A DNA stretch of 40,724 nucleotides from a virus (taxonomy: Duplodnaviria; Heunggongvirae; Uroviricota; Caudoviricetes): positions 1 to 40,724 of the IMG/VR virus record IMGVR_UViG_2565956726_000012. One strand, given 5' to 3'. This document shows positions 5,728-35,527 of the stretch, piece by piece. The notes below the pieces were generated by a model that saw only the letters and a list, made by a program, of their open reading frames with translations, was not told where the DNA came from and made no database searches. Made by a program: the position numbers and the translations under genes. Every line of letters starts with the position of its first letter. Positions within the stretch are counted from its first letter, which is position 1.

Positions 5728-5742
5728 TTACCTTTCAGGTAA
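5728..5742. promoter_or_regulatory. Operator copy A (TTACCTTTCAGGTAA) of the ATTACC-N5-GGTAAT family
   Basis: Perfect 17-bp palindrome ATTACCTTTCAGGTAAT; lies between minus-strand TTGAAA -35-like hexamer and the tailspike gene, and upstream of the plus-strand island. Confidence 0.6.
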
Positions 5743-5779
5743 TTTTCAAAACGTGCTGGATAGCAAACAAATTATTTGA

Positions 5780-5799
5780 TACTGTATAAATATACAGTT
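5780..5799. promoter_or_regulatory. LexA (SOS) box TACTGTATAAATATACAGTT
   Basis: CTGT-N8-ACAG with AT-rich spacer and TA flanks, near-consensus; 20 bp upstream of ATG 5820. Confidence 0.7.
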
Positions 5800-5819
5800 A
5801 TTGCATGGAGAAGATTAAG

Positions 5820-6077
5820 ATGCAGCAGTATCACTATCCACTGGAAGAGGGATTTACCGAAAGGATTCACACGCCGGGAGGCGTCAGGTCACTGGTGGAG
5901 GGATCGCACTTGATGAAATTACTCCGGGATCTCGATAAGGATGGATTTAATGTCGATGGCCCACTTGCCGAACTGACTGCACTGATTAACTACGTCACCA
6001 GCTCACAGATGTCTATGCAGGATCTGCAAACACATCTCGACTATTGTGCCGAACAATTACGAAAACAAACCAGATAA
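5820..6077 (+). CDS. Small standalone antirepressor C-terminal (ANT/KilAC-like) domain protein; candidate SOS-inducible antirepressor
   Basis: 85 aa; clearly alignable to the C-terminus of the downstream Bro-N antirepressor (GVRSLVEGSHLMKLLRDLDKDGFNVDG..AELT vs GVLGLTENSLLMNLLNQLQDDGHDVSG..AELT); GGAG RBS before ATG 5820; LexA box upstream. Confidence 0.55.
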   Translation: MQQYHYPLEEGFTERIHTPGGVRSLVEGSHLMKLLRDLDKDGFNVDGPLAELTALINYVTSSQMSMQDLQTHLDYCAEQLRKQTR

Positions 6078-6080
6078 GGT

Positions 6081-6123
6081 TTGCAATTACCAAGTGAAGT
6101 GCTTATATTTACCTTTGCGGTAA
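6081..6123 (+). promoter_or_regulatory. Sigma70-like promoter (TTGCAA-17-TATATT) with operator copy B (TTACCTTTGCGGTAA) abutting the -10
   Basis: Near-consensus -35/-10 with 17-bp spacer; operator starts at last base of -10. Confidence 0.6.
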
Positions 6124-6236
6124 ATTTACATCGCACTCCTCTTGTGCCATAGTAATCGGGCACTGGCAAAATCCAGTGCCGGGATTGGCGTCCCGAGTTA
6201 CTAAGTGGCGCATACCACGCCAGACGTGGTTTTTTT
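6116..6236 (+). ncRNA. Putative structured small RNA or leader element (c4/sar-like antirepressor control RNA) ending in an intrinsic terminator
   Basis: No ORF; hairpins GGCACTGG/CCAGTGCC (6159-6180) and CGGGA/TCCCG (6180-6195); terminator at 6214-6236; lies between a strong promoter and the ant gene. Confidence 0.35.
6214..6236 (+). terminator. Rho-independent terminator upstream of ant
   Basis: Stem ACCACG/CGTGGT, loop CCAGA, followed by 7 T. Confidence 0.65.
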
Positions 6237-6392
6237 ATGCGTTAAGCACAGCTATATCCGAATTATGGTGGGCTGGGCAGGGGTCCGAAAGGACGCCGGT
6301 ACCACTTAGGCCGGTACGCCAACCTTGTCCAGTTCACCACCAGTAATTGGCGTTGCGGTGGTGATTAAAATCACTAAGTGGAGATAACCACC

Positions 6393-7103
6393 ATGGCTAA
6401 TGCTCAAACTGCCATCTTCAAATTTGAATCTGTTAACCCTATCCGTTCCATCATTATCGATGGCCAACCATGGTTTGTAGCCCAAGACGTTTGTAGTGCG
6501 CTGCGCATCCAAAACGTCACCCAAGCACTTGAAAAACTGGATGATGATGAAAGGTCTATGTTCAACATAGGGCATGAATATCGTGCAATTTTTGACAGCC
6601 GAGTAAAAGAGATCAACATCATCTCCGAGTCAGGCCTCTACACACTGATCCTCCGCTGCCGCGACGCAGTGACACCGGGCACTATCCCCTACCGCTTTCG
6701 TAAATGGGTTACAGGTGAGGTTCTTCCTCAGATCCGCCGCACCGGAAGTTACATTAAAAACTCGCTCCCGCAGGAAGAACGCATAAAGATGGTTGCCGAC
6801 CAGGTTGCAAACGCCACAGCATCAGCAGTGATGCAGGCAATGAAGATAGAGAACAAAACCTACAGCGCCCCGCTGAAGCCCGGCTACCGCAGCCTGATTC
6901 ATTCTCCGTCTGGTGTTCTCGGCCTGACGGAGAACTCATTGCTGATGAATCTGCTGAATCAGTTGCAGGACGACGGGCATGATGTATCGGGCGCGGCGGC
7001 GGAGCTGACCACCATGTTTTGCTACATCGTTGGTGTGAGCAAATGCCTGCGTGATATCCAGACGCACGCGGAGTACATCAACGACAAGGCAGGGTTCTTC
7101 TGA
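6393..7103 (+). CDS. ant: Antirepressor, Bro-N N-terminal domain plus ANT-like C-terminal domain
   Basis: Bro-N-like N-terminus (FKFESVNPIRSIIIDGQPWFVAQDVCSALRI); GGAG RBS 9 nt before ATG 6393; the GTG at 6378 in the track is an unlikely start. Confidence 0.8.
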   Translation: MANAQTAIFKFESVNPIRSIIIDGQPWFVAQDVCSALRIQNVTQALEKLDDDERSMFNIGHEYRAIFDSRVKEINIISESGLYTLILRCRDAVTPGTIPYRFRKWVTGEVLPQIRRTGSYIKNSLPQEERIKMVADQVANATASAVMQAMKIENKTYSAPLKPGYRSLIHSPSGVLGLTENSLLMNLLNQLQDDGHDVSGAAAELTTMFCYIVGVSKCLRDIQTHAEYINDKAGFF

Positions 7104-7148
7104 CAGAACGGCGGCACAGGGATGTGCCTTTAAATAATTCTGTACAGA

Positions 7149-7191
7149 TTGCAGACCGGGGGTGAATAGCGTACTATTACCTCAAGGGTAA
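7149..7191 (+). promoter_or_regulatory. Sigma70-like promoter (TTGCAG-17-TACTAT) with operator copy I (TTACCTCAAGGGTAA)
   Basis: Same -10-abutting operator architecture as copy B. Confidence 0.55.
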
Positions 7192-7251
7192 ACGGATTGG
7201 TTTCATTTTTATTAATCCGTGTAATGAACTTATGAGATATGAGGTAATGTC

Positions 7252-7431
7252 ATGCGAAACGAAAAATTGCAGATGCGTAGAGCGCAAGCTGCCGCAAGAC
7301 GTTCTTTCAATGGAAGCGTAGAGTACGTAAAAGTTACTATGGCAAAAGATCACGCAAGTCGCGTATCCCGCGCTTTCTTTGATTCTCGTAACAATAAGGA
7401 AAATTATGAGTTCGTCTGCGTCGCAGAATGA
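7252..7431 (+). CDS. Small basic protein (59 aa), candidate antitoxin-like partner
   Basis: GAGGTAA RBS 5 nt before ATG 7252; Arg/Lys-rich; 3-prime end overlaps start of next gene by 26 nt; below the 60-aa cut-off of the ORF track. Confidence 0.35.
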   Translation: MRNEKLQMRRAQAAARRSFNGSVEYVKVTMAKDHASRVSRAFFDSRNNKENYEFVCVAE

Positions 7432-7951
7432 TAAAAATCAAATTGTCAGATATAAGGGTCGAGTATTGCATACGCAAAATTTCTCGGCCCTTTGTGCATC
7501 TGATCTTGAGCTGAAGAAAGTATCTGATGCCTTTGCCCAGTATTGGAAAACGGGATACCATCCATCTCTTGGTAAAGATGCTGCATTTGCTCGTCCGACA
7601 GAAATGCTTAAACTAAATGTCAGGCATGCTCATGTCGATAACCAAGACTATATTCCAGAAGATAGTGATAAAAAACACACTGGTAAAAAATCATCTTGGG
7701 ATGCATGGAAAAATATAGCGTCTGTACAAGTAAAATGCATACCAACAAGTGATTGCTTTTTAGTTTATTCGGTAAATCACAATCGTGATGCGCTGGTTAT
7801 GTTTTTTGTTGACGCAGATGCCCACAACATAACTGAGCAAGAAGAGTTTAAAGAGGCAGCAATCACTATCAGTTATCAATTCTTTGAGAAAACAAAAACA
7901 GAACCAATGCCTTTAGAAGAAGATCTTTTTTCTGATAAATGGAAGGAATAA
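7406..7951 (+). CDS. Hypothetical protein with possible YafO-like toxin N-terminal region plus acidic C-terminal extension
   Basis: AAGGAAA RBS before ATG 7406; segment GKDAAFARPTEMLKLNVRHAHVD recalls a YafO-family motif from memory only; AT-rich codon usage; own promoter and terminator. Confidence 0.45.
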   Translation: MSSSASQNDKNQIVRYKGRVLHTQNFSALCASDLELKKVSDAFAQYWKTGYHPSLGKDAAFARPTEMLKLNVRHAHVDNQDYIPEDSDKKHTGKKSSWDAWKNIASVQVKCIPTSDCFLVYSVNHNRDALVMFFVDADAHNITEQEEFKEAAITISYQFFEKTKTEPMPLEEDLFSDKWKE

Positions 7952-7973
7952 GCCCGCGTTGCGGGCTTTTTTT
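7952..7973 (+). terminator. Rho-independent terminator
   Basis: Stem GCCCGC/GCGGGC followed by 7 T immediately after stop at 7951. Confidence 0.7.
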
Positions 7974-8045
7974 ATGGACGAAACAAAAGTCAGTGCTACA
8001 CTCATTGACGCCACATTGAGGTGGCTTATAGATGGAAATTTCACA

Positions 8046-8207
8046 ATGAAAAAAGCATTTGCTGCACTGTTCGTTTTGTTGTCTCTGGTAGCTTCAACTC
8101 AGGCCTTTGCCGGTCGTTGTCAACACGACAGCGATACTGCCGCTGACGGCTCCCGCTGCGGTGGGCGTTCTGCGGATTCCCGCCCGGGCGGCGGTGGCAT
8201 TCGTTAA
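8046..8207 (+). CDS. Small secreted Gly/Arg-rich protein (53 aa), hypothetical
   Basis: Signal peptide MKKAFAALFVLLSLVASTQAFA; GGAAA 7 nt upstream; the longer track ORF from 7959 would start inside the upstream terminator and is rejected. Confidence 0.4.
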   Translation: MKKAFAALFVLLSLVASTQAFAGRCQHDSDTAADGSRCGGRSADSRPGGGGIR

Positions 8208-8229
8208 AAACAAGGCCGCGAAAGCGGCC
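8204..8229 (-). terminator. Rho-independent terminator for the minus-strand structural operon
   Basis: Stem GGCCGC/GCGGCC with GAAA loop; on minus strand followed by TTGTTTTT. Confidence 0.6.
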
Positions 8230-8243
8230 TGTGACATGTCACA
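8230..8243. repeat. Perfect 14-bp palindrome TGTGACATGTCACA (copy 1 of the GTGACATGTCAC family)
   Basis: Exact self-complementary sequence; same 12-bp core recurs at 25642-25653 and 27907-27918. Confidence 0.8.
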
Positions 8244-8804: not shown

Positions 8805-8806
8805 TA

Positions 8807-11359
8807 TTATTTACCTAGCATGAACTGCGATGGTGGGATCAGAAAGTCGTTACCCTGCTCACGCTCAACACGGCGCTGATAACGCTCAAGAGAGCCTGGG
8901 TCAAGGGCATCTTGTATCCGGTTCAATATTAAACCATTCATCGCCGTACGAAGCCAGAACACGTTGAGGAATGGCGTATTGTCAAGTGCCGTGCGATACC
9001 AGTCACCCAAATCTGCATCCCCTCTCGTGGTCTGCTGGAGCAGCGTGATAATGCTGTCAGCGTTCGATGCTGCTGGCCCCATTAGCGACGTAACCGGCCC
9101 GGCCCCCATGCGGTTGACCTCGCCAAACATGAAGTCACCCAAGATGCCAAGACCGCCCCCCTGAGATGCGGCTGCGAGAAACGTCTTGGCATCTGCCGGG
9201 CGTGGTGTTTGCCCTTTCAGCATGAGTTTTGACTGCATGGAGATATAACCAAACATAGTCGCCCAGACAAAGAGGTTTGCAGCACCAAGGAAAGCCCCCT
9301 TCCCGTTACGTAGCAGCGCATTCGTCAGCGATCCGGTTTTCGACTCACCAAGCCCAGCAGGAATATAACCACGCCCGAATACTTCGCGTCCTAGTACGTT
9401 CTGCATGAAGCTTGCAGTGAACGATTTGTACTGACCAGCGAATCGTATTGCTTCCCCAGCCACCGTTCCTGGCACCGTGCCCATCTTCATAAACGCCTGC
9501 GTGCGATCGCCAGGCTCTGACATGGCGATATTCAGGCGGTCAAGGATGTAGCCGCGCAACTGCCCTTCCAATTGATCGCGTGCGTCAGCGATAGCGCGCT
9601 GCGTTGGTTTGATCCCCTTACTCTCTACATAACCGGCAATCACTTCGTCAGGCACGCCGCGGATGCCGCTGGTCGTCATGAACTTACGACCTTCGCTATC
9701 GGCCATGTCCATGTTGCGAAAAATTTCCCACTCACGTTCGCCAATACCGTGCAGATCCAGCACGCGTCGCAGGTCTTCCGGTAGCCGCGCATGAGACTGG
9801 TCAGCATTCTTTGCAAGCCAGTTGGTTATCATCATGGCGTTGCTGTTGCGACCGCTCTCGGTCCAGAAGTTCATGAGGTTGTACTTAAAGAAAAGCTGCT
9901 GCGCGCGACCAAGCTTTCCATTCAGCGTGTCATCACCAGATATGCGCCGGATGATTTCCTGCGTCATGGAGTCGGAATAAACTCCGATAGAGGAAAGGAT
10001 CTCTTTCTGCTCCGCGCTGTTGTAACGCGTGAAGCGGCCTCTCATAGCACCAAGCAACGCCTGCATAAAATTCTGCCCTTGGTAGCGCATCTCGGTAGCG
10101 GCGATAGGCACGTCGTTAAACGATGAGATTACCGCGCCACCAAGTTGGCTCATACGCAACCAGCCGCGTACAGCCGCCGACGCATTGGCCCAGCCTACGC
10201 TGCCAGGAATATTTAGCGAGCCGTCAACCTGCGGCATTACGGTACGGTTAATGCGACGCACCTTCGTCATGTAGTCAGCCAACGCTGCCGGTCTTCCGGA
10301 TTTGCTGATATCTTCAGCAATGGCGTCCGTCAGGTACTTAAACATGTTCTGTGGGTTAGTGCCCAGTACGCGCATCATGCCCGTTGTGCGGGCAGCGCTG
10401 TTTAAGCCACCAAACAGCGCTTCTCGCAGGCTGCCGGTGCCGAATTGCTGGTTGTACTCGTGCCACGAGATACCATCTTTGAAGTGCAAAATTCGCTCTT
10501 GGCTGGCGCGTTTAGCTGCGTTCGCCGATCCCTTAAAGCCATTCATCCAATCGGGCTTTTCAGATGTAAGATGCACGCCGGAAGCCAGCCCGTTATAAAT
10601 GTTACGCATGAACTGCTCGCGGTCAGCCACGCCGTCAAAAGTGCGCTCATCAAGGCGCGGGAGAATAGCATTTCGCCATGCTTCATAACCTGCGGCGCGG
10701 ATCTTCATGATGTCGTGTGACTGGCGCACTATATAGCCCGGCTCTTTGCGTATCCATGCCCCGGCGCGGTTCTCATCAATGCGCGCAGTTTCCTGCCATT
10801 TCATGATGATTTGTGCAGCGCTTACGGATTGCTTTGTCATACCGTCAGTTGACTGCCCGCGCCCTATGCGCCACATTGCATCGGCAATTTCCCGGTCATT
10901 GCTGCCGCTGGCGATGAATTGCACCAGCCCGGCACGGTCAAAATCGTAGTTGATACCGGAATGATACTTGCCGCGCAGTTGCGCCACCTCCGAAGATACC
11001 GACCGGCGGGCGCCGGTACGCGCATCGTTGCGGCCAACCAGCATTGCTTCAAGCCCGATATCCGGGCGGTCTTTCCAGATAGTACGAAGCTCTCTAAGTC
11101 GTTGTGCGGCAATACGGGCGTTGATTGCCTTATTGCGAGCCTCAATCTGTTTTGCCAGCATATCGGCATTGCTCAGTTCTTCCGCTGCGCGCATCGCGGC
11201 CTCTTCCAGAGACAGCGCCTCATTGGTCGCCAGAATTCGCCTAGTGGTGTCGTTCATGTCACGCACCAGCGACTCCATCTCATCGGAAGAAAGCTCGCGA
11301 CCAGCGGCAGCATTTACACTGCGCTCGCACTGCGTCAAAAATTCGTTTGCTGCCATCAC
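8807..11359 (-). CDS. Large internal virion/ejection protein
   Basis: 850 aa; in operon after the transglycosylase-domain protein; overlapping start/stop with neighbours. Confidence 0.65.
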   Translation of the reverse strand: MMAANEFLTQCERSVNAAAGRELSSDEMESLVRDMNDTTRRILATNEALSLEEAAMRAAEELSNADMLAKQIEARNKAINARIAAQRLRELRTIWKDRPDIGLEAMLVGRNDARTGARRSVSSEVAQLRGKYHSGINYDFDRAGLVQFIASGSNDREIADAMWRIGRGQSTDGMTKQSVSAAQIIMKWQETARIDENRAGAWIRKEPGYIVRQSHDIMKIRAAGYEAWRNAILPRLDERTFDGVADREQFMRNIYNGLASGVHLTSEKPDWMNGFKGSANAAKRASQERILHFKDGISWHEYNQQFGTGSLREALFGGLNSAARTTGMMRVLGTNPQNMFKYLTDAIAEDISKSGRPAALADYMTKVRRINRTVMPQVDGSLNIPGSVGWANASAAVRGWLRMSQLGGAVISSFNDVPIAATEMRYQGQNFMQALLGAMRGRFTRYNSAEQKEILSSIGVYSDSMTQEIIRRISGDDTLNGKLGRAQQLFFKYNLMNFWTESGRNSNAMMITNWLAKNADQSHARLPEDLRRVLDLHGIGEREWEIFRNMDMADSEGRKFMTTSGIRGVPDEVIAGYVESKGIKPTQRAIADARDQLEGQLRGYILDRLNIAMSEPGDRTQAFMKMGTVPGTVAGEAIRFAGQYKSFTASFMQNVLGREVFGRGYIPAGLGESKTGSLTNALLRNGKGAFLGAANLFVWATMFGYISMQSKLMLKGQTPRPADAKTFLAAASQGGGLGILGDFMFGEVNRMGAGPVTSLMGPAASNADSIITLLQQTTRGDADLGDWYRTALDNTPFLNVFWLRTAMNGLILNRIQDALDPGSLERYQRRVEREQGNDFLIPPSQFMLGK

Positions 11360-13053
11360 ATCCCCCGGTTAATCATACAGGCGGCAAATGCCCGGAAAGC
11401 GTTGCTCATGCTATTGTCGCTGGCGTCGGCACGAATATCATTGAGTTTCTGGCGCAACGTGGTCGCAAGATCAGGGTTATCGACAGCGATATCGTCAAGC
11501 AGGGCGTTACTCAGGTTGAGCTCGTTATCAAGGTCTGCAGCGGCAGCGGTAATTTCATGATCTGCCTTTTGCGTTTCTTGATAAACCCGATCGGCTGTTT
11601 CGCTTGCTGGGCGAGCCGTTTCATCAACCTGCCGTGCCGGGTTCTGTATGCGATGGATGGCGCGTTCACGCAGTGCCGGTTTGTGCAGTTCATAGAAGGG
11701 CTCAACATCTGGGCTACGTCCTTCCATCATGTGTGCCAGCGCAGCGCGATACGCCTGCTGGTTCACGTTCCAGTCAGCATCCCTGATGGCGCTTGCGGCA
11801 GTGCGAACTGCGCCAGCGACCGGCGACATCTGCATGCCGTCCAGGATCTGCTGCGCACGCTCGGAAATGGTGACTTTCAGGTCGTCGGGGATCTCGCCGC
11901 GGGAAATCTGAGACTGGCGCCAGCGCGCCTGCTCTGCTGTCGCGTTCTGCTCCAGCGATGTGTTGATCTCCTGATTGCGTGCAGCGATGGCGTCTTTCTC
12001 GGCCTGAATCTCTTTCAGTGCCCTAGAGCGCGCATCCTTAAACTTCATCCGCTGCCCCTGATACTTTTTGGTGCGCTGCTGCAGCGTCGCATCAAGCGAG
12101 TCAGCATGACGTTGATTAGCCGCAAGCTCGGCACGCAGGTCGGCAACGTTACCGATCTGACCGCTCTGTAATTCCTGCTGGCGCGCCATATAGTCAGGAA
12201 CCACGTCGTCATAAGCCCGGCTGTATGCGTAGCTCTCCGCTTCACTGGAAATGGCCGCCGCCAGATCTGCGTTAGCGCCAACCTCAGGGATATTCACGCC
12301 CGCCGGAATGTTGTCAGGCGTTATCACCGGGGTTGGCTGCGCATCGCCAGAAAACGCCGGGGACTCTCCCGTTGCAGCATCGGGAACGCGACGCGGTCGC
12401 ACGATATCGGCGATAAGGCCGCCGCCGGCATGCATTAGACCGCCAGCCATCGTGTTAAAGAAAGTACTTTCCAACGCGTTGCTATAGGTGAAGTCGTCAC
12501 CTTCCGCCGCCGCTGCCAGCCCGGTAAGCGGCACGGTCACCACCGCCTGCGCTGCCCCCATGCGTGCACCAGCAACAAATCGCTCGCCAAATCGGCCAAG
12601 CACAGAAGCCGCCTTTGCTTCTCCAGCGAACGGAACCAGCGCCAGCGCCACGTTACCAGGATCTGCCATTGAACCAGCTAGGCTGGCTGCGAAATTAAGC
12701 GGCGTGGCTACCCATCCGCTCGGTGCCGACATCGCGATCTGCTGGCGTGCCAGAGAATCTTTGCGTTCGGCAATAACATGATCGAGAAAAGCCTGCGTAA
12801 CGCCAGAATCTGGCACGTTTATGCTCTTTACGCCGTACTGCTTCAGGAGCTCATCCGCTTCCTGCTTGCTGATAACTGTAGAGTTTGGGTCATTCGCCAG
12901 CGAGTCGGCCTGCGCAAAGCGGTAGCCGGACATGACCGGCCCCTCTTCAAATCCCTGCTTAAGGGAAGAAAGCAGCGATTCACCAAGCCCTGCTGGCGCG
13001 TTGCCAATTGGCTGGTTAATTCCCTGTCCCGGATCATCTGTGTAAATTGGCAT
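11356..13053 (-). CDS. Internal virion/ejection protein
   Basis: 565 aa; Ala/Gln-rich predicted coiled regions; operon position between two large internal proteins. Confidence 0.6.
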   Translation of the reverse strand: MPIYTDDPGQGINQPIGNAPAGLGESLLSSLKQGFEEGPVMSGYRFAQADSLANDPNSTVISKQEADELLKQYGVKSINVPDSGVTQAFLDHVIAERKDSLARQQIAMSAPSGWVATPLNFAASLAGSMADPGNVALALVPFAGEAKAASVLGRFGERFVAGARMGAAQAVVTVPLTGLAAAAEGDDFTYSNALESTFFNTMAGGLMHAGGGLIADIVRPRRVPDAATGESPAFSGDAQPTPVITPDNIPAGVNIPEVGANADLAAAISSEAESYAYSRAYDDVVPDYMARQQELQSGQIGNVADLRAELAANQRHADSLDATLQQRTKKYQGQRMKFKDARSRALKEIQAEKDAIAARNQEINTSLEQNATAEQARWRQSQISRGEIPDDLKVTISERAQQILDGMQMSPVAGAVRTAASAIRDADWNVNQQAYRAALAHMMEGRSPDVEPFYELHKPALRERAIHRIQNPARQVDETARPASETADRVYQETQKADHEITAAAADLDNELNLSNALLDDIAVDNPDLATTLRQKLNDIRADASDNSMSNAFRAFAACMINRGM

Positions 13054-19156: not shown

Positions 19157-19761
19157 CAGGACAACCTCGCAATGGTAAACTCGTCAACCGGTGGCTGTGG
19201 TTCCTGTGATTCATTCTGGCTATGCGAGCCAGCACTAAGAATCACGCGATTGTACATATTGAGGGCAAACGTACCGAGGTCTGCATTCCCAGTCAGCGCC
19301 ATGTTAATAGCTGCCGCAAGACGCCAGGCCAACGCCTCCATAAAAATGGCATCAAACATGTTCACATCTGTAACGCGAGAGACATACTTGAGCCATGCCT
19401 GAGGCTGGTCTGTGTAGATCAACTTTCCTGTTCCGTCGGTGTCTGCACCAACTTCGTACTGAACGCGCATTGCTGCTGTTGGATTGCGTACACCAGGAAG
19501 CATAATTTCAGTAATGCGCAGACAATCGGACGGGTACTGGTATGCGTATTCCCAGTCTGGCGGCGGATTGCTCGTATCTGCAAGCGCCACGCGTTTGGTA
19601 GCAAAGTTCCAGTCAAAATCAGAAAGCACAGCATCACGGCAGGCCTCAAAGTGCAGCGAACATTCCCCCGCTTCCTTGCTGGCTTCCGTCAGGCTGTTAA
19701 TACTGCGGCTGTTGCCAATATTGGACAGCGCACGATTGCAGATCTCTACTACAGAGGCCAT
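19156..19761 (-). CDS. Tail tubular protein A (adaptor, T7 gp11-like)
   Basis: 201 aa; position between head genes and tail tubular B. Confidence 0.65.
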   Translation of the reverse strand: MASVVEICNRALSNIGNSRSINSLTEASKEAGECSLHFEACRDAVLSDFDWNFATKRVALADTSNPPPDWEYAYQYPSDCLRITEIMLPGVRNPTAAMRVQYEVGADTDGTGKLIYTDQPQAWLKYVSRVTDVNMFDAIFMEALAWRLAAAINMALTGNADLGTFALNMYNRVILSAGSHSQNESQEPQPPVDEFTIARLS

Positions 19762-19817
19762 AAGTTTCTATACTCCTGCAATAAAGGGGCCGAAGCCCCT
19801 TGTCTGATTCGCGAGGC

Positions 19818-20153
19818 TTACACGCCCAGTTCTTTACGCTTATCTGCGATCTTCTCGCGGAGCGTTTCTGCTTTGGCGTTATGGTGTGGCTTCTCGTTAA
19901 AGAGCAATTCGTACTCTTCACGGAGCTTATCCAGTTCACCATCATCTGACACATCGTTGATGATTTTGGTGCTGGTTGCTGCCATTGACACCTTTCCCGC
20001 TACCTTTGCTTTTGCCTGTCTGGCTGCATCGTTAACAGGTTCCAGTGCGCTACCAGGCTCACCTTCGTATTCGATTTCTGCCCCCTCCGGCCACAGAGTG
20101 TTATGGATATGAGAGAGGCGCAGAACGCGGTATCTTGGTTTCTCACCTGACAT
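19818..20153 (-). CDS. Hypothetical virion-module protein
   Basis: AAGGTG RBS before ATG 20153; between capsid-region genes and tail tubular A. Confidence 0.45.
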   Translation of the reverse strand: MSGEKPRYRVLRLSHIHNTLWPEGAEIEYEGEPGSALEPVNDAARQAKAKVAGKVSMAATSTKIINDVSDDGELDKLREEYELLFNEKPHHNAKAETLREKIADKRKELGV

Positions 20154-24545: not shown

Positions 24546-24604
24546 ATCAATGACTCCGTACGCAATTAAATTATTACCAATTTAACCACATATGATTTAT
24601 TTAT

Positions 24605-24641
24605 CGTAGAAGGTTGACATTTAACGCGTGAATTATTACCT
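24605..24641. promoter_or_regulatory. TTGACA -35-like element plus operator copy C (TTACCTTTCAGGTAA)
   Basis: Identical 15-bp core to copy A; lies between portal-side operon and the tRNA island. Confidence 0.5.
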
Positions 24642-24972
24642 TTCAGGTAACTAAAGAGCTCATTCTGGTTACTAACCTGACTGGCTTGTCGTTAAATTAA
24701 ACAGGTGGAGTGAGCTTTTATTTTGAGCAGTACGGCGTATGGCACATGCGCCGATAGCGGTCTGGATACGTTTAAGGGGCACCCTCCCTTGCTCGGGCAA
24801 ACGAACCAGGTAGCCGGAATGTGCAAGTCGAGCGGTTTTATTCCGCGCACGGGGATTCACCATCCCGGCGATTCGGTGTGACGCCTCGGAAGAGACGAGG
24901 GTACAACGATGAGAGCATTTATGGAGCCGCGACAAAGTGTGGCGCCTTAACAGGCTAAGTGCTCTCAGCGTT

Positions 24973-25049
24973 GTGGCATTAGCTCAGTCGGACAGAGCAA
25001 CCGCCTTCTAAGCGGTTGGTCGCAGGTTCGAATCCTGCATGCCACGCCA
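24973..25049 (+). tRNA. tRNA-Arg (anticodon UCU), phage-borne
   Basis: 77 nt cloverleaf: 7-bp acceptor stem GTGGCAT/ATGCCAC, D-arm GCTC..GAGC, anticodon loop CTTCTAA, T-arm GCAGG-TTCGAAT-CCTGC, discriminator G plus CCA; closely resembles argU-type tRNA. Confidence 0.9.
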
Positions 25050-25092
25050 GAATCACGCCTAAGGACCGTGATGCCAGAAGTTCCAGGGGCTT

Positions 25093-25134
25093 GGCGGTGA
25101 TGGTTTCCCTTGAAGAACTATCACCGCCCTTTTT
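25093..25134 (+). terminator. Rho-independent terminator after tRNA
   Basis: Stem GGCGGTGAT/ATCACCGCC followed by CTTTTT. Confidence 0.55.
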
Positions 25135-25179
25135 ACAGCAGGACGCCATTGCGATGACTTCATGCTGTAAACCAGTACA

Positions 25180-25203
25180 GCCCGGTTCGCCGGGCATTTT
25201 TTT
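25180..25203 (+). terminator. Rho-independent terminator
   Basis: Stem GCCCGG/CCGGGC with TTCG loop followed by ATTTTTTT. Confidence 0.7.
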
Positions 25204-25214: not shown

Positions 25215-25637
25215 ATGAAAACAGCCGACATGCTAGCTAAATATCTAAATGAATGGCCGTGCAAATATGTACGCATTGTTCAGGGTGATGACTCAATTTT
25301 TTATGGTGTTTTTGCAGGAAATGAAATGCTTTGTGAAGCAATTCCAGGTGAGCGACTTGCCGGGTTAACGCTTAGCGATGACCATGGAATAGGAGTTACT
25401 TGCCATGACTGGATTTCAGCGCAGAAAACTGAAATGGAAAAAGGCAATGTGTTTGATATTTCTCGCGCTGTATACGCCAAAGAAAAAAGTGATGATGATT
25501 ACATGCGCGAAAACTTATACAACATGAAGTTACAATGCCTGGCTGAAGTGCTTAGTAAAAGATCTTTACTTGATGTGGTTGGTGCTGAGCAGGACGCCAA
25601 GGCAATCAACGCCGCATTCGATAAAATAACCTTCTAA
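25215..25637 (+). CDS. Hypothetical protein (140 aa) in the plus-strand island between portal and terminase
   Basis: AAGGTGA RBS 5 nt before ATG; convergent with terminase; flanked by terminators. Confidence 0.6.
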   Translation: MKTADMLAKYLNEWPCKYVRIVQGDDSIFYGVFAGNEMLCEAIPGERLAGLTLSDDHGIGVTCHDWISAQKTEMEKGNVFDISRAVYAKEKSDDDYMRENLYNMKLQCLAEVLSKRSLLDVVGAEQDAKAINAAFDKITF

Positions 25638-27203: not shown

Positions 27204-27796
27204 TGATTGCCATCCTGACGTTCTTTCAGTCTCTTCCTGGCTGCCGCTATGCGATCAGCAATTGTCACATTCACATTAACATCCAGGCGTTCTTTGAACG
27301 CGTTGACATCAACATGCTTACCAATCAGCTCAAGGTTCTTCACCTTGTCAGGCCATTTAATTTTTTTGAGGATTGTCTCTATCGAATCCTCGTTCATGTT
27401 CATGATGGTCGATGACAGATCAAAGCCGCTAAGCGTAGTGCGCCAGATTTTCGGCCACTCGCGGATTGGTTTAAGGCTCCCATCGTCGTTGAGGATGTCG
27501 ATCACGTCCATCTGGTCGATCTCCACCAGGCGCATGAGAACGTAATCAGCACTGACGCGCATTCGTTTGTTGCGCTCCTCCATCAACTCGGCAATCCGTT
27601 TTTGAATGCGTTCATCGCGCATCATGACACTGGCTTTAACTGCCGCTGTATTTGGGGAGAATCCTGCGTTAATCGCTGCCTGAGTCTGGTTTTCAGGCGT
27701 TTTGATGTATGACTGGCAATAAGCCTCCTGCATTGCTGTTAGTGGCTTAAATTGCGTTGATTTGCGTTTATAGGTTTTAGGTTCAGCAGGCATCAT
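27200..27796 (-). CDS. terS: Terminase small subunit
   Basis: Conserved LTAMQEAYCQSYIKTPENQTQAAINAGFSP region; start at ATGATG 27796/27793; track extension to 27874 crosses a terminator hairpin. Confidence 0.8.
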   Translation of the reverse strand: MMPAEPKTYKRKSTQFKPLTAMQEAYCQSYIKTPENQTQAAINAGFSPNTAAVKASVMMRDERIQKRIAELMEERNKRMRVSADYVLMRLVEIDQMDVIDILNDDGSLKPIREWPKIWRTTLSGFDLSSTIMNMNEDSIETILKKIKWPDKVKNLELIGKHVDVNAFKERLDVNVNVTIADRIAAARKRLKERQDGNQ

Positions 27797-27813
27797 AACC
27801 ACCGTGGTAATTG

Positions 27814-27828
27814 TTACCGTTGTGGTAA
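27814..27828. promoter_or_regulatory. Operator copy J (TTACCGTTGTGGTAA) in the terminase upstream region
   Basis: On the minus strand preceded by TATTAT, the same -10-abutting arrangement as other copies. Confidence 0.5.
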
Positions 27829-27840
27829 TAATACCATGCA

Positions 27841-29565: not shown

Positions 29566-29566
29566 A

Positions 29567-29755
29567 TCACTCTCCTTTAGTGCGCAAGTGGTTTTTCCAG
29601 CGGTTTTGCGCCGCGCTGGGCTTTTTGCAAAAACCACAATCCATCATCCCGTAATATTTCATCAACCCCATCCGTCGGTTGCTGAGTCTCACCCACTGCC
29701 AGACGCCAGGAGCGTTTCTACGAACTAACAGAATCTTTGCTTTACGGTTTTTCAT
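29567..29755 (-). CDS. Hypothetical small basic protein
   Basis: AGGAG RBS; overlaps stop of upstream Ea22-like gene; coding status uncertain. Confidence 0.3.
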   Translation of the reverse strand: MKNRKAKILLVRRNAPGVWQWVRLSNRRMGLMKYYGMMDCGFCKKPSAAQNRWKNHLRTKGE

Positions 29756-30473: not shown

Positions 30474-31105
30474 CCTTCACAGTTGTAATCACTACAGCCT
30501 TCAAAATCATATGGGCTGTACTGCCAGGTTATTTTTCCGCAATGCGGACAATTCCAACGCACCTTCCCGCTTCGCGACTTCTTTCTTCTGTTCTGCTCTT
30601 TCAACCAGTCAGGCATGACCAAACCTGCGCCCTGAACCATTGTTCTGCGGTTAAAGTTATTGATATTGAACGTCCGGCGCTTTGCTGCATCAGCAATGGA
30701 AAATGGCAACCAAACTATTCCTGGTTCGTTTTTGTTGGCGACGCTAAAGATGGTCGCTTTACTGAAGTCATCTGTTGGCAATCCACCGTGTTGAAGCCAG
30801 TAAACATCGTTGCCGTTCCAGCTGCCTTTTTTGTAGGCCACATACGCAGTGCAATCTGACTCAATCAGGCTTTCTGTAGGGATGTACTGGCAATCAACGT
30901 GCCACACAGCCATTGCATCCACACTATCGGCACAAACAGGCTGATCGATATCTCGCCCACAATTCCAGGCTTTTTGGGCTTCTTCCAGCGTGTAAACATG
31001 AGCGCGATCGATATCAGAACTGTAACCATTGCCGTTATGGCAATGGAATGAAGCGTTATTACCCACAGTTTCACGCAAGCACATCATGTAAAAGCGGTTA
31101 TTCAC
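30461..31105 (-). CDS. Hypothetical protein with C-terminal CPHC zinc-ribbon
   Basis: 214 aa, operon context among lambdoid accessory genes. Confidence 0.5.
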   Translation of the reverse strand: MNNRFYMMCLRETVGNNASFHCHNGNGYSSDIDRAHVYTLEEAQKAWNCGRDIDQPVCADSVDAMAVWHVDCQYIPTESLIESDCTAYVAYKKGSWNGNDVYWLQHGGLPTDDFSKATIFSVANKNEPGIVWLPFSIADAAKRRTFNINNFNRRTMVQGAGLVMPDWLKEQNRRKKSRSGKVRWNCPHCGKITWQYSPYDFEGCSDYNCEGWRE

Positions 31106-31409: not shown

Positions 31410-31411
31410 TT

Positions 31412-31936: not shown

Positions 31937-31997
31937 CTTTACCCTCGCTTATCCACATAACTTATTGATAACATTGATAACTAAAAAGATCGTCGAT

Positions 31998-32342: not shown

Positions 32343-32345
32343 GAT

Positions 32346-32429
32346 TTACCTCTGAGGTAATTAAAAACCACATAAGACACGAAATCAATAGATTTTAGAA
32401 TATTTTATTACCTAACAGGTAATTGTCGA
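32346..32429 (-). promoter_or_regulatory. Minus-strand promoter (TCGACA-16-TAAAAT) with operator copies D (32346-32360) and E (32408-32422)
   Basis: Copy E lies in the spacer, copy D in the 5-prime UTR 4 bp before ATG 32342. Confidence 0.55.
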
Positions 32430-32459
32430 GACGTAAAAAAATGCGCTATCGCGCTGGTA

Positions 32460-33260
32460 TTACTTGATAAATCCTGCCGCCTTTCCCCGCCTGTATTCCT
32501 CCATCAGCCACTGCGCCGGTGTTATTCCCCCAAGGGTGGCGGCGTTAGGCATGCACCCGAAACTTCGCCCTGGTGGATGGTAAACGTCTCTCCCTGTGTC
32601 CGGAGGCGTACTCATGGGCTCTGGCTTTGCCTGTATGCTGATCACCGGATCGGGTATCTGCTGTCCGGAAGCCACCTTTTTCGCCCAATCATCGAGCAGC
32701 CTGCGTGCGTGTTTCTCAACCTCAATCTCGCTAAGCTGGCGCTGATACATTGCACGGCGGGTATCACATACGACCCAGTACATAACCGGATGTCGCCACG
32801 GGAATCTTTCGGGACCACCAGGATATAAACTTTTTTCCTTGCTGTACCGGTGAAACTCCGCCATCACATCGTCAATGGTGACGCCAAGAACCATCTTGCT
32901 GTCTTTGCACCACTTGATAAATTGCCCTGGAGACGGCCAGAACGGAGATTCACTGGCGCGGGCGTGGCGCATACCAGCAGAAACCTGTTCACGGGTTCGG
33001 ATCCCCCCTTCGGCAAACGCAGCAATCCACTGCTGTTTTGCAGCAACTTCCTGCTCTGGCGTCTTCAGGTTGGTTACCACTGCCGCCGGAAACAGTTGTT
33101 TCAGCTGTTTAAAAAGGGCATCAACAAGCCTCTCTGCTGACATGTTCACCACATTGTCATTGTTGACGTACTGATGCTCATAACCTGACATGCGAGAAAG
33201 GGCTTCTCCGTCACGGTTTTGTATCGCGGTAAAAACGTTGTTCACAAGAAATCCTCCCAT
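32460..33260 (-). CDS. Replication protein P-like helicase loader
   Basis: Region QQWIAAFAEGGIRTREQVSAGMRHARASESPFWPSPGQFIKWCK aligns with lambda P as recalled. Confidence 0.75.
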   Translation of the reverse strand: MGGFLVNNVFTAIQNRDGEALSRMSGYEHQYVNNDNVVNMSAERLVDALFKQLKQLFPAAVVTNLKTPEQEVAAKQQWIAAFAEGGIRTREQVSAGMRHARASESPFWPSPGQFIKWCKDSKMVLGVTIDDVMAEFHRYSKEKSLYPGGPERFPWRHPVMYWVVCDTRRAMYQRQLSEIEVEKHARRLLDDWAKKVASGQQIPDPVISIQAKPEPMSTPPDTGRDVYHPPGRSFGCMPNAATLGGITPAQWLMEEYRRGKAAGFIK

Positions 33261-34057
33261 GCTTCAGGGCTGTTCCAGTGCGGAACGTTGTTATCAGGTA
33301 ATGTTGATTGCTTCTGTCTGCTAATCTGCAGCCGCCTTGCCAGCTTCTGCTCCCACTGTGCCTGATGGTATGCCTTACCCTCAGCCATCCAGTAAATTCT
33401 GAACTCTGCAAGTTCCTGTGCCGTTGGCAGACTGTCCAGGTAGATTCCCTGCAATGAGCTTTTCCGAAGAAAGTCATCTGATGGCTGCCATTGTTCATGC
33501 ATGACAAATTTACCTAATTGCCCTGGCCCACCAGGAGGAACAAAGTTATTCATCACGGCGTTGTTTGCGCCGGGGTCATGAGGAACAGAATCCCCGGTTT
33601 TTGTCCTGCTCTCCCTCTCTTGGTTAAATGACTGGTTATATGACTGGTTCTGGATCCCGTTTTTGGGATCATTCAACATCCCGTTTTTGGGATCATTCAA
33701 CATCCCGTTTTTGGGTATATTCCCGTTTTCGGTAACATTACCGTTTTCGGGTTCATTGCCCCCCTCCCGGTTGCCTTTAATGTTCCCGTTTTTGGTTATA
33801 TTAAGAGAGAAAACCCGCACTCTTTTTGTCGCTCCCTTTCTCTCTCCGGTATCTGAAATAAGCCCCATTTTCATGAGCGATATAAGCCCGGCCTGCACGG
33901 TTTTTTTATTCAGGCAAGTGTCTTTAACGAGGCGTTCTATGCTGGGGTAGCAGAGGTTATATTCATCGGCTCTGTCAGCCATCGAGAGCAGTATGAGCTT
34001 TAATGATGAGCTACCTGGATCTGTCTCCCAGGCCCAATCTGTTGCATGTCTGCTCAT
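33242..34057 (-). CDS. Replication initiator O-like protein containing the iteron origin
   Basis: N-terminal winged-helix-like region; central Asn/Gly-rich amino-acid repeats encoded by DNA iterons. Confidence 0.7.
   Translation of the reverse strand: MSRHATDWAWETDPGSSSLKLILLSMADRADEYNLCYPSIERLVKDTCLNKKTVQAGLISLMKMGLISDTGERKGATKRVRVFSLNITKNGNIKGNREGGNEPENGNVTENGNIPKNGMLNDPKNGMLNDPKNGIQNQSYNQSFNQERESRTKTGDSVPHDPGANNAVMNNFVPPGGPGQLGKFVMHEQWQPSDDFLRKSSLQGIYLDSLPTAQELAEFRIYWMAEGKAYHQAQWEQKLARRLQISRQKQSTLPDNNVPHWNSPEAWEDFL
33653..33800. repeat. Replication origin iterons (about 6 copies of TCCCGTTTTTGGGAT-like repeat)
   Basis: Two exact 24-bp tandem units CATCCCGTTTTTGGGATCATTCAA plus degenerate copies at 18-24 bp period, inside the O-like gene. 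Confidence 0.75.
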
Positions 34058-34072
34058 GATTAATCTCCGCTA

Positions 34073-34273
34073 TCAGCTTGAGTGTTGTGGGGAGGAATTA
34101 ATCATGATCTGCTTAATCTCTGCCCTGATGCGACGGTTTGATTCCATGGTGCACTCAACACAGTGTCCGTTGTAAACCCAGCGTTCACTGTCATGTCCGT
34201 GCTTACATGGTTTTCCGGTGTAGTAGCGTTTAAGTCCGCGCTTTGCGGCATCAATACGTGTAATGATTTCCAT
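34073..34273 (-). CDS. Small zinc-finger protein at the CII-equivalent position
   Basis: C-x-H-x-H...C-x2-C cluster; between Cro-like and O-like genes; start chosen at ATG 34273. Confidence 0.4.
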   Translation of the reverse strand: MEIITRIDAAKRGLKRYYTGKPCKHGHDSERWVYNGHCVECTMESNRRIRAEIKQIMINSSPQHSS

Positions 34274-34353
34274 GGTAAGCCCTGTTATTAGTATTGGGAT
34301 TACGGTCATTTTGTGCTGACACAAAAAAAAGATCAACCAGATTTGGTTATTTA

Positions 34354-34368
34354 TTACCTTTGAGGTAC
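34354..34368. promoter_or_regulatory. Operator copy F (TTACCTTTGAGGTAC)
   Basis: One mismatch in the right half-site; between tR1-like terminator and the CII-position gene. Confidence 0.45.
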
Positions 34369-34375
34369 GAATAGA

Positions 34376-34401
34376 TATGAAAAGACCGCCGGGTGGCGGT
34401 C
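34376..34401 (-). terminator. tR1-like terminator after the Cro-like gene
   Basis: Stem GACCGCC/GGCGGTC with 4-nt loop, short U-tract on minus strand. Confidence 0.45.
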
Positions 34402-34423
34402 TACAGAGGGTTGTAGCTGGATA

Positions 34424-34654
34424 TCATGAGTAGAAGAAGTATGCCAGTTCTGCTTTTGAGCGCAGCCATTGTCTTGTTTTACAGGCTTTAAAAAGCCCAT
34501 TCATCAATACTTTACCTGGCATTTTGCGCTTACCTGTTAAGTGAGTCTGGATATAGTGACTCGTCGTTCCGGCTTCCTGTGCGAAGGCTTCACGCTCATC
34601 CGGAGTAAGTGCAAGCCAGTGCTTTTTGAAATCGAAATGTCCGTTATCGCTCAT
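34424..34654 (-). CDS. Cro-like HTH regulator
   Basis: 76 aa; HTH-like LTPDEREAFAQEAGTTSHYIQTHLTG; divergent from repressor across the operator cluster. Confidence 0.55.
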   Translation of the reverse strand: MSDNGHFDFKKHWLALTPDEREAFAQEAGTTSHYIQTHLTGKRKMPGKVLMNGLFKACKTRQWLRSKAELAYFFYS

Positions 34655-34666
34655 AGCTATTGCCTG

Positions 34667-34690
34667 ATATTTATTTCAGATAATAAATAT
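34667..34690. repeat. AT-rich 24-bp palindrome ATATTTATT-TCAGAT-AATAAATAT at the Cro-side promoter
   Basis: 9-bp arms, exact reverse complements. Confidence 0.7.
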
Positions 34691-34753
34691 TCACCCATAA
34701 GGTAACAAAAATCAAGGATAGTTACCTATGAGGTGCATTTACCTGTTGGGTAA
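34691..34753. promoter_or_regulatory. Immunity-region operator cluster: three adjacent copies (34691-34705 imperfect, 34722-34736, 34739-34753)
   Basis: TCACCCATAAGGTAA, TTACCTATGAGGTGC, TTACCTGTTGGGTAA between divergent cro-like and repressor genes. Confidence 0.65.
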
Positions 34754-34808
34754 TATTGCTTTAAATTGAATCATCTACTGATTCATATATGAGGCGATTT
34801 TCCAGAAA

Positions 34809-35393
34809 ATGAAAAGTATCCAGGACGTCCGCAGGCAAAATCTCAACGACTTGATCGACCGTGAATTCAATGGTGTTCAGACGCGGATGGCAGAAAAACT
34901 TGGAACTCAGGCAAATCTGGTAAACCGCTGGGCTCTTGGCAAGAAGGTTATCGGCGACCAGGTTGCGCGAAAAATTGAAGCTGCCGCCAATAAACCCCGT
35001 AACTGGCTTGATATCGATCGCTCGCTTTCTCAGGAAGGTTTTCAGCCTGTCGGCCCAAGCGACATTGGTCAGCTGGCGGCTCACAACCTGGAACGCTGGA
35101 TGAGCGAAAGCCGCGACCTTTCAACGCAGGGAAAACTTCACCGCGCATCCGGCGTCGCCCAGGTGACAATCAGCCGCCTGTTAAACAATGAGGTCAGCGT
35201 TTCCATTTCCACCCTGGAGAATGTTGCATCCGCATTCGGGCGTCACGGATATGAACTACTGATTCACCCGCACGACCCTGCGACTATCAACTATGACCGC
35301 TCACGCTACGCATTGTTACCCGAAACCGAGAAAGCAAAGATCGAAAGTTACATTGAATTTGTCATCAACCAGAACGAAAAAAGCAAACAATAA
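34809..35393 (+). CDS. Prophage repressor with two tandem XRE-type HTH domains, no S24 peptidase domain
   Basis: Two HTH motifs (QTRMAEKLGTQANLVNRWALGKK and QGKLHRASGVAQVTISRLLNNE); no Ala-Gly/Ser-Lys autocleavage module; divergent from cro-like gene. Confidence 0.75.
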   Translation: MKSIQDVRRQNLNDLIDREFNGVQTRMAEKLGTQANLVNRWALGKKVIGDQVARKIEAAANKPRNWLDIDRSLSQEGFQPVGPSDIGQLAAHNLERWMSESRDLSTQGKLHRASGVAQVTISRLLNNEVSVSISTLENVASAFGRHGYELLIHPHDPATINYDRSRYALLPETEKAKIESYIEFVINQNEKSKQ

Positions 35394-35415
35394 AACTATA
35401 GTTTTCAGTAAGTAA

Positions 35416-35437
35416 GCCGCCTCATGGCGGCTTTTTT
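35416..35437 (+). terminator. Rho-independent terminator after repressor gene
   Basis: Stem GCCGCC/GGCGGC, loop TCAT, 6 T. Confidence 0.75.
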
Positions 35438-35450
35438 ATTGCCAGATAGA

Positions 35451-35465
35451 TTACCTTACGGGTAA
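35451..35465. promoter_or_regulatory. Operator copy H1 (TTACCTTACGGGTAA)
   Basis: Perfect half-sites, 20 bp upstream of the early-left -35. Confidence 0.55.
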
Positions 35466-35484
35466 TTTTTTTAACTCATATCTA

Positions 35485-35527
35485 TTGACACCAAACCAAA
35501 TAAGCATAATTATTACCCCAACGGTAA
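35485..35527 (+). promoter_or_regulatory. Early-left promoter (TTGACA -35, AT-rich -10) with operator copy H2 (TTACCCCAACGGTAA)
   Basis: Consensus TTGACA at 35485-35490; operator at 35513-35527 abutting the -10 region. Confidence 0.6.

Follow-up and report, generated by a model that had tools for sequence, protein, structure and literature searches.

A 17-bp palindrome dispersed over a φV10/ε15-like prophage probably represents the operator set of the prophage repressor Rep

Analysis of the virus record IMGVR_UViG_2565956726_000012, a stretch of 40,724 nt that was examined at its full length and is referred to as the window, identified 14 copies of a 17-bp palindrome, ATTACC-N5-GGTAAT, which are likely to be the operators of the prophage's own repressor, Rep, encoded at 34809–35393. 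Judged from homology, the window is an integrated temperate podovirus of the φV10/ε15 type, genus Uetakevirus. The palindrome is real and the reading given in the initial annotation, that it is bound by the 34809–35393 repressor, was right in outline, since homology, conservation and the annotation of phage ε15 make this the best explanation; it is also an ordinary feature of this phage group. The motif at these loci was already known for the genus, because the ε15 record marks the same motif at the same loci as repressor-binding, and the finding is therefore a rediscovery and not a new system. The promoters that Rep plausibly shuts by direct binding are PL, PR, that of rep itself, one mid-early promoter and that of terminase, together with those of three accessory units (isrK/C4 RNA with a Bro-N antirepressor, a YafO-like toxin unit, and tRNA-Arg).

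The exact sequence ATTACC-N5-GGTAAT was observed three times in the window against 0.00 expected from dinucleotide shuffles, and 17 matches were observed at two or fewer mismatches against 1.15 expected, a number reached by none of 100 shuffles. Copies of the form (A/T)TTACC-N5-GGTAA(T/A) number 14 and are spread over nine loci; this site set, defined as 17-mers with the invariant core ACC-N5-GGT, starts at 5727, 6108, 7176, 24635, 27795, 27813, 32345, 32407, 34353, 34690, 34721, 34738, 35450 and 35512. The half-sites read ACCT/AGGT in about 60% of cases. About 13 copies had been reported initially; the copy at 27795 had been overlooked, the copy at 24635 had been placed at 24627, and the other coordinates mostly referred to the inner 15-mer TTACC-N5-GGTAA, one base beyond the 17-mer starts.

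The copies are clearly enriched between genes, and the lack of such enrichment, named initially as grounds for refutation, does not apply. According to a coding map based on φV10 homology, in which the non-coding share of the window is 6.3%, all 11 exact TACC-N5-GGTA cores are non-coding (binomial P = 6e-14), as are 14 of the 17 ACC-N5-GGT matches (binomial P = 9e-15), and no intergenic match with a spacer length other than N5 was found in the window. With a position weight matrix built from the sites, the 14 sites score at least 13.2 bits and the five in-gene matches with two or fewer mismatches score at most 10.2 bits. These five matches, at 2729, 4838, 10236, 15678 and 31028, were rejected for their low scores and broken ACC/GGT core and look like chance occurrences. 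The one at 31028–31044, inside orf214, is a perfect palindrome (ATTGCCGTTATGGCAAT, 8.5 bits) that reproduces the operator pattern with one base altered symmetrically in both halves (TGCC/GGCA).

The copies are also associated with promoters. When both strands of the window were scanned with a simple σ70 weight matrix, 13 positions scored 10 or more, and eight of these, including the four best in the window, overlap or abut a copy of the palindrome. The initial observation that copies begin at the last base of good σ70 -10 hexamers was borne out at 6109 (TTGCAA-17-TATATT), 7177 (TTGCAG-17-TACTAT) and 35513 (TTGACA-17-AATTAT). Several copies, at 34353, 32407, 27813 and 35450, directly follow terminators.

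Conservation was assessed in six uetakeviruses, whose host genera are Escherichia, Salmonella, Enterobacter and Klebsiella, and the motif, the syntenic loci and the promoter geometry recur across them, with the motif at matching loci in φV10, ε15, SPC32H, Enterobacter phage Tyrion and Klebsiella phage BUCT711. The ε15 RefSeq record (NC_004775.2) carries seven features labelled 'protein_bind: repressor' (12–27, 2931–2947, 19895–19911, 32479–32494, 32554–32570, 32616–32632 and 35906–35922), all of which are zero-mismatch matches to the motif in that genome, with starts agreeing within one base, and which precede terS, gp3, the tail fibre gene, the early-left genes and ruvC. A full-text literature search for the motif strings and for Uetakevirus together with operator returned nothing relevant.

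The protein expected to read the sites is Rep, which is 99.5% identical to φV10 p40 and matches the SPC32H Rep (PDB 5D50_A) over its full length (residues 1–190 aligned, E = 3.5e-42). Its matches were to XRE-type helix-turn-helix (HTH) families in Pfam and to SPC32H Rep only; no S24 peptidase (RecA-cleavable) domain was found in Rep by Pfam, which returned HTH families only. In an alignment with four members of the genus the recognition helix, NLVNRW, is invariant, though Rep identity is only 43–78%. For SPC32H, Rep is reported to bind palindromic sites as a tetramer which Ant disassembles (PMC9638917) and to have a tetramerisation fold of a type linked to DNA looping; engagement of DNA by the tetramer is said to have 'not been extensively characterized' (PMC9986798). 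In phage ZX5, whose Rep is 99.5% identical to that of the window, Rep overexpression abolished free phage and lowered holin mRNA by 99.97% (PMC9782041).

A more distant genome also connects the half-site to this protein family. The cI of Pseudomonas siphovirus PseuP_224, which has a genome of 59.5% GC, shares 39% identity with Rep in its N-terminal domain and has a LexA-like C-terminus. Since this cI is flanked by ATTACC-N4-GGTAAT sites (spacer 4, not 5), with three to one side of the gene and two to the other (10905–10946 and 11767–11821), the ATTACC half-site appears to travel with the Rep-type HTH family. These sites share the geometry in which a -10 hexamer ends in the operator; beyond the flanks of cI, the genome holds only two matches, each with two mismatches, and it has a Q gene.

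The regulatory proteins, and the operators of the early, replication and terminase regions with their predicted promoters, are listed below.

34809–35393, plus strand: rep, 194-aa repressor with N-terminal XRE-type HTH, middle dimerisation domain and C-terminal tetramerisation domain
5820–6077, plus strand: ant, small antirepressor, matching PDB 5D50_E 'Anti-repressor protein' (E = 1.6e-47)
5780–5799: LexA box TACTGTATAAATATACAGTT at the ant promoter, with a perfect CTGT-N8-ACAG at 5782–5797, conserved in all relatives
34424–34654, minus strand: cro-like gene, 76 aa, first of PR, 100% identical to φV10 p41
34690–34706: cro-proximal (OR1-like) operator, GTTACCTTATGGGTGAA on the minus strand, in the -35/spacer of PR (spanning -33 to -17)
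34708–34680: predicted PR, TTGTTA-17-TATTAT, score 11.5
34721–34737: middle (OR2-like) operator, GTTACCTATGAGGTGCA, 14.6 bits, labelled the weakest copy
34738–34754: rep-proximal (OR3-like) operator, whose TTTACC half serves as the -35 hexamer for the candidate rep promoter
35450–35466: distal PL operator, exact ATTACCTTACGGGTAAT, just after the rep terminator (35414–35433)
35512–35528: proximal PL operator, covering -8 to +8 of PL
35485–35513: predicted PL, TTGACA-17-AATTAT, score 11.2
32407–32423: distal operator of the DUF1064 promoter region, exact copy, after the P-gene terminator (32454–32435)
32345–32361: proximal operator of the DUF1064 promoter (-8 to +8), holding the gene's Shine-Dalgarno sequence and ending 2 nt before the ATG
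32388–32360: predicted DUF1064 promoter, TTGATT-17-TTTAAT, score 11.2, conserved in 6/6 genomes
34353–34369: operator after the cro terminator (34402–34383), centred at -60 of the internal p42-dnaT-P promoter and itself overlapped by no promoter
34336–34308: predicted p42-dnaT-P promoter (P_p42), TTGATC-17-CAAAAT; the promoter and the -60/-61 operator position are conserved in 6/6 genomes
27813–27829: terS operator 1, at -8 to +8 of the extended -10 promoter TGgTATTAT (27836–27828), just after the p55 terminator (27865–27848)
27795–27811: terS operator 2, 18 bp from operator 1 and ending 1 nt before ATG 27793

Two of these loci carry operator pairs of the same design. At PL, whose geometry is conserved in all six genomes, the copies at 35450 and 35512 lie 62 bp apart, centre to centre, in 6/6 genomes (63 bp in BUCT711), and the copies at 32407 and 32345 are likewise spaced by 62 bp in 6/6 genomes. 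In this window the 32407 copy is also located within the spacer of TCGACA-16-TAAAAT (32429–32402). Viral contigs were searched with a pattern allowing 47–77 bp between sites, which returned 120 loci; 87 of these carry a detectable Rep homologue (30–100% identity). A distance of 62–63 bp was found in 144 of 184 pairs from the 120 contigs, or in 109 of 147 distinct sequences, and after clustering at 75% identity in 14 of 31 clusters, with any other distance in at most four clusters.

In the immunity region, the copy at 34721 abuts that at 34738 (17 bp centre to centre), and an identical 17-bp pair is present in ε15, SPC32H and BUCT711. The only conserved candidate for the rep promoter, TTTACC-18-TAAATT (34738–34767), is found in 6/6 genomes. 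At terS, φV10, Tyrion, ε15 and SPC32H share the conserved TGnTAYTAT element, and the 18-bp operator pair recurs in φV10, ε15 and Tyrion. The true terS start on the minus strand is probably ATG 27793, giving a protein of 197 aa that begins MPAEPK… as in ε15 TerS. The long φV10-style frame (27874, 224 aa) was rejected, as it reads through the terminator hairpin and both operators, encoding LNTAANYGGFILHGIITTTV…, and the short form matches ε15 TerS.

The cro-like protein is 58–84% conserved across the genus, contains an invariant HTH-like stretch, AGTTSHYIQxHLT, and is a possible second binder of the same operators. The ant gene is, from its perfect and conserved box, predicted to be under LexA control. 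In the PDB alignment, Ant resembles its SPC32H counterpart far more closely than Rep does its own (43% identity), although Ant binds the C-terminal domains of Rep.

The remaining copies, and the elements next to them, belong to accessory units and to the portal and tail-fibre loci.

6108–6124: operator at -8 to +8 of the strongest promoter-like site of the window, TTGCAA-17-TATATT (6081–6109, score 12.4)
6160–6236, plus strand: isrK (Rfam, 67 bits, above the gathering score)
6261–6344, plus strand: C4 antisense RNA (RF01695; Rfam, 66 bits, above the gathering score)
6378–7103: Bro-N antirepressor gene, downstream of isrK and C4
7176–7192: operator at -8 to +8 of TTGCAG-17-TACTAT (7149–7177), before orf59 and the YafO-like toxin (7252–7951)
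24635–24651: operator separating the portal and tRNA/moron units, at -14 to +2 of a plus-strand promoter
24614–24642, plus strand: predicted tRNA/moron promoter, TTGACA-17-TACCTT, score 10.5, in 6/6 genomes, pointing away from the portal gene
24973–25049, plus strand: tRNA-Arg(TCT) (ARAGORN and Rfam), followed by terminators at 25093–25128 and 25180–25195
5727–5743: operator in the divergent ant/tail-fibre region, exact copy

A second promoter, TTTACA-17-CATAGT (6125–6153), fits the isrK start at 6160, and the 56-aa open reading frame (ORF) at 6176–6346, which overlaps isrK and C4, is probably not a gene. The toxin assignment relies on a match to Pfam YafO_toxin, and TL-2011b carries an identical arrangement of operator and promoter. 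The region downstream of the 24635 promoter varies between phages and here contains tRNA-Arg(TCT), two terminators and orf140; the tRNA, which SPC32H annotates at the syntenic place, appears to be driven by the predicted Rep-controlled promoter at 24614–24642. The ORF lying under it (φV10 hypothetical protein p04; 24979–25197, minus strand) is probably spurious. Rfam found no structured RNA in 24650–24972, the tRNA-Arg being the only match of that search. Between the tRNA terminators and orf140 (25215–25637), a second CTGT-N8-ACAG match, CTGTAAACCAGTACAG, is located at 25165–25180 on the plus strand, and could be a weak LexA box for the orf140 moron or a chance match.

The copy at 5727 is separated from the LexA box by 37 nt in five of the six genomes and by 36 nt in the sixth, and lies at about -57 of a candidate ant promoter (P_ant), TGGATA-17-TACTGT (5757–5785). 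The scores of P_ant and P_p42 are modest (8.3 or lower). A σ70-like tail-fibre promoter across the 5727 copy (5749–5720) was not relied on, since it is present only in this window.

A second conserved palindrome was identified before late units. It forms a block, conserved in six genomes, which consists of CCATATATGG (extended form AACCATATATGGTT), exactly 9 nt, and then a -10-like hexamer.

5672–5699, minus strand: second element before the tail fibre gene, CCATATATGG, 9 nt, TAATAG(AAT)
24570–24595, minus strand: second element before the p06/portal unit, TCATATGTGG, 9 nt, TAATAA(T); the 30-nt block is near-identical in 6/6 genomes
Relatives: second element at 24736 in φV10, 24748 in ε15, 24826 in SPC32H, and 26452, 34215, 35385 and 37308 in Tyrion

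Relatives carry the block before lysis genes too. Variants of the element abut the -35 of the p42 promoter (34335–34348) and of the Bro-N promoter (6068–6081), and in Tyrion and BUCT711 variants fall within the spacers of PL and of the DUF1064 promoter. Enrichment of the second palindrome within a single genome is weak (3 observed versus 0.66 expected), and the case for it rests on syntenic conservation. Sites for the σ32 -10, σ54, CRP, FNR, DnaA, Fis and IHF were considered by eye, and none fits. The element may be the target of an activator or switch factor for late genes. Since the portal and tail-fibre units are each preceded by a promoter-like block of this kind, late control is not exerted by Rep alone.

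By analogy with SPC32H, the N-terminal domains of Rep, acting in pairs, would recognise the two TTACC half-sites. Rep in a lysogen would sit on the polymerase footprint (-8 to +8) at PL and at the DUF1064, terS, isrK/C4/Bro-N and YafO-unit promoters, at -14 to +2 of the tRNA-Arg/moron promoter, and in the -35/spacer of PR and of the candidate rep promoter, where its binding would amount to negative autoregulation. Eight promoters (PL, PR, rep, DUF1064, terS and the three accessory ones) would thus be closed. At PL and DUF1064, where the second operator lies 62 bp upstream (about six helical turns), one tetramer could clamp both sites around the -35 in a cooperative micro-loop. P_ant and P_p42 each have a lone operator, at about -57 to -60, that probably aids their repression. 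If induction proceeds as homology to SPC32H predicts, it would not involve RecA cleavage of Rep; DNA damage would instead remove LexA from the ant promoter, and Ant would strip the Rep tetramers from the DNA, so that all Rep-held promoters would open at once. Expression of the portal and tail-fibre genes would then need a further step through the second conserved promoter element.

Several observations weigh against assigning every copy to direct repression by Rep. The sites at 34353 and 5727 overlap no conserved core promoter, and the site at 24635 overlaps no promoter that reads towards the portal gene. The operator centres are estimated at about -66, -78 and -70 of the late-promoter blocks, which lie downstream of the operators at distances of 27, 39 and 30 nt, and because this distance varies, Rep is unlikely to act directly on the portal and tail-fibre promoters. 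The -35 of the candidate rep promoter falls within the best copy of the immunity region, which implies either unusually strong self-repression or a wrong promoter assignment. In relatives, a copy separates the lysis genes from the O-antigen conversion gene, which is expected to be on in lysogens. Finally, the cro-like protein could bind the same sites. It is possible, although we consider it rather improbable, that the copies are mainly or also targets of this lytic-phase regulator (34424–34654) and that Rep matters only in the immunity region. Cro and repressor share operators in λ and P22, and both the invariant HTH-like stretch of the cro-like protein and its higher conservation (58–84%, against 43–78% for Rep) would match the invariance of the motif, but the ATTACC half-site accompanies a Rep-type N-terminal domain in an unrelated Pseudomonas phage, the ε15 annotators assigned the sites to the repressor, and overexpression of Rep alone silences lytic genes (PMC9782041). 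The assignments to Rep and to the cro-like protein are not mutually exclusive.

Alternatively, the copies that lie upstream, at about -57 to -62, and certain lone ones might be architectural or looping anchors, or class-I-type activator positions, instead of simple occluding operators, with Rep priming P_ant or P_p42 to fire when a second repressor (LexA or another factor) leaves. The classical class I position of CRP is -61.5, and the operator is fixed at -60/-61 of P_p42 in 6/6 genomes; the 37-nt gap to the LexA box in 5/6 genomes, the conserved 62-bp pairs and a tetramerisation fold that for SPC32H Rep is reported to be of the looping type point in the same direction. We nevertheless regard this as unlikely, as there is no sign of contact between Rep and RNA polymerase, activation of ant or of the replication genes would harm a lysogen, and P_ant and P_p42 are predictions of modest score. 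That the repeat arises as a side effect of the sequences of promoters and ribosome sites (the TAnnAT-TACC -10 junction and the GAGGTAA Shine-Dalgarno), or a recombination linker at module junctions, is highly improbable. Several copies do supply the last -10 bases or contain a Shine-Dalgarno sequence, and copies are present at mosaic junctions, such as 24635, to the left of which the sequence is unalignable between genomes; however, the half-sites are symmetrically conserved and the N5 spacer is invariant even at 34353, 35450 and 5727, away from any promoter or start codon, no other spacer length occurs, and the 62-bp phasing is conserved. There is even less reason to suppose that a host regulator, such as an MqsA-like XRE protein, reads the sites. 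The MqsA palindrome is ACCT-N2-4-AGGT, and the roughly 60% of half-sites reading ACCT/AGGT bear a resemblance to it, but its flanking bases differ (TTACC here, TAACC there), and in phages from four host genera the motif is conserved alongside the Rep that each phage encodes.

Besides direct repression by Rep, a wider hypothesis can be formulated, which we hold as speculative and on balance doubtful: uetakeviruses may run an antitermination-free two-factor programme, in which a looping Rep tetramer is combined with a second regulator reading AACCATATATGGTT. Rep would enclose the -35 of key early promoters in micro-loops of a fixed 62 bp and, at the ant and replication promoters, would also hold positions at about -57 to -62, while AACCATATATGGTT would replace the -35 at the portal, tail-fibre and lysis promoters, its binder setting the early-to-late switch. 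Genome-wide spread of a λ-like OL/OR operator set, comparable to that of PseuP_224, would then have replaced N/Q control.

Comparison with known systems places the window, by homology, in the Rep–Ant family of ε15 and SPC32H (PDB 5D50/5D4Z), for which each feature compared was found: the repressor and antirepressor homology, the LexA box at ant, the ATTACC-N5-GGTAAT motif, its loci in ε15 (before terS, the gp3/portal unit, the tail fibre gene, the early-left genes and the mid-early DUF1064 or RuvC promoter) and the 62-bp pair spacing. The window differs in that its Rep is only about 43% identical, in that ε15 annotates just its seven perfect copies, and in the addition of predicted Rep-controlled isrK/C4/Bro-N and YafO-like units. 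It also lacks the O-antigen gene of its relatives and an operator before the lysis genes. In phage P1, operators are bound by C1 monomers, and the late promoters are not known to be C1-bound and depend on Lpa. The likeness to P1 lies in its roughly 14–22 operators of 17 bp, dispersed over the genome and many on promoters of non-immunity genes (PMC8546580), and in the immI region (c4 antisense RNA-icd-ant), as in the window the C4 RNA and isrK precede the Bro-N antirepressor behind the operator at 6108. Rep is, however, unrelated in sequence to C1, and the operators of P1 are asymmetric (ATTGCTCTAATAAATTT; PMC8546580) whereas those of the window are symmetric palindromes. The likeness to P1 is thus a functional analogy without family membership.

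As in λ CI/Cro, three operators are located between the divergent rep and cro genes, overlapping the predicted PR and repressor promoter, two more are found at the early-left promoter beyond the rep terminator, and negative autoregulation is likely. In contrast to λ, nine of the 14 copies lie outside the OL/OR regions, and Rep has no RecA-cleavable S24 domain. No N or Q antiterminator gene was recognised in the window. PseuP_224 displays the λ-like state, as it has a Q gene and its half-sites are confined to OL and OR. The sites of mycobacteriophage L5 gp71 (stoperators) are asymmetric and orientation-dependent and block elongation. They resemble those of the window in that repressor sites occupy short intergenic gaps genome-wide, and several window copies lie right after terminators, but most window sites are palindromic and overlap promoters. 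Multi-site asymmetric operators have been contrasted with lambdoid ones (PMC1934351). The accessory module recalls isrK-orf45-anrP of Gifsy-1, in which an antirepressor-like gene comes after an isrK RNA that ends at a terminator of its own (PMC4825925); the module of the window adds a C4-family RNA, sits behind a predicted Rep operator and is carried by a podovirus.

These comparisons qualify the initial picture of one master regulator with wiring closer to P1 C1 than to λ. The dispersed operators, which include early, terminase and accessory promoters, and the C4/antirepressor unit agree with the P1 comparison, and the unrelated protein and symmetric operators do not. Common gating by Rep is plausible for the early, terminase and accessory units, but the late units have the second element and ant is predicted to be under LexA. 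Copies had been described in front of terminase, portal and tailspike blocks; this applies to terminase, but the promoter at the portal locus points away and the tail-fibre σ70 promoter exists only in this window. An operator does head many promoters, but not essentially every transcription unit, as none belongs to the lysis genes in the window.

The immunity region is 97–98% identical to those of φV10, PAS61 and phiv142-3, and elsewhere the prophage is mosaic. The att core ATTGAGTGGGAATGATT, a sequence taken from PMC9782041, is found at 1164–1180 on the minus strand and marks the prophage end, and the window stops at the integrase start codon. To the left of the core (1–1163) are a glycine-zipper/TraT-like lipoprotein gene (1–516) and a DUF5384 gene (532–1071). 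An operator-like sequence, ATTACCTTAAAGGTATA, is present about 58 bp upstream of int in all relatives and would here fall just outside the window. The counterpart of φV10 p13 is missing at 19761–19818, where the gap between p12 and p14 is only 56 bp and tblastn gave no match; the φV10 record annotates p13 as similar to ε15 gp10, which is 'major coat protein' in the ε15 record, and BUCT711 also appears to be without a counterpart. At 3089–3160 the tail-fibre gene abuts the lysis cassette, and between the two there is no O-antigen acetylase gene, operator or CCATATATGG block, unlike in φV10, ε15, SPC32H and Tyrion. In this prophage, read-through transcription from the tail-fibre unit may serve the lysis genes.

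In conclusion, the analysis yields a regulatory map that can be put to the test in φV10-type prophages of E. coli, those of O157 among them, whose published annotations list no operators, and corrects the annotation with respect to the terS start, the tRNA-Arg hidden under a 'hypothetical protein' and the unannotated isrK and C4 RNAs. The strictly conserved 62-bp pairs offer a clean system for understanding how the solved SPC32H Rep tetramer engages DNA. If the sites are indeed read by Rep, the accessory units (antirepressor module, toxin-like unit and tRNA) would be silenced by the prophage repressor and would not be expressed in lysogens.

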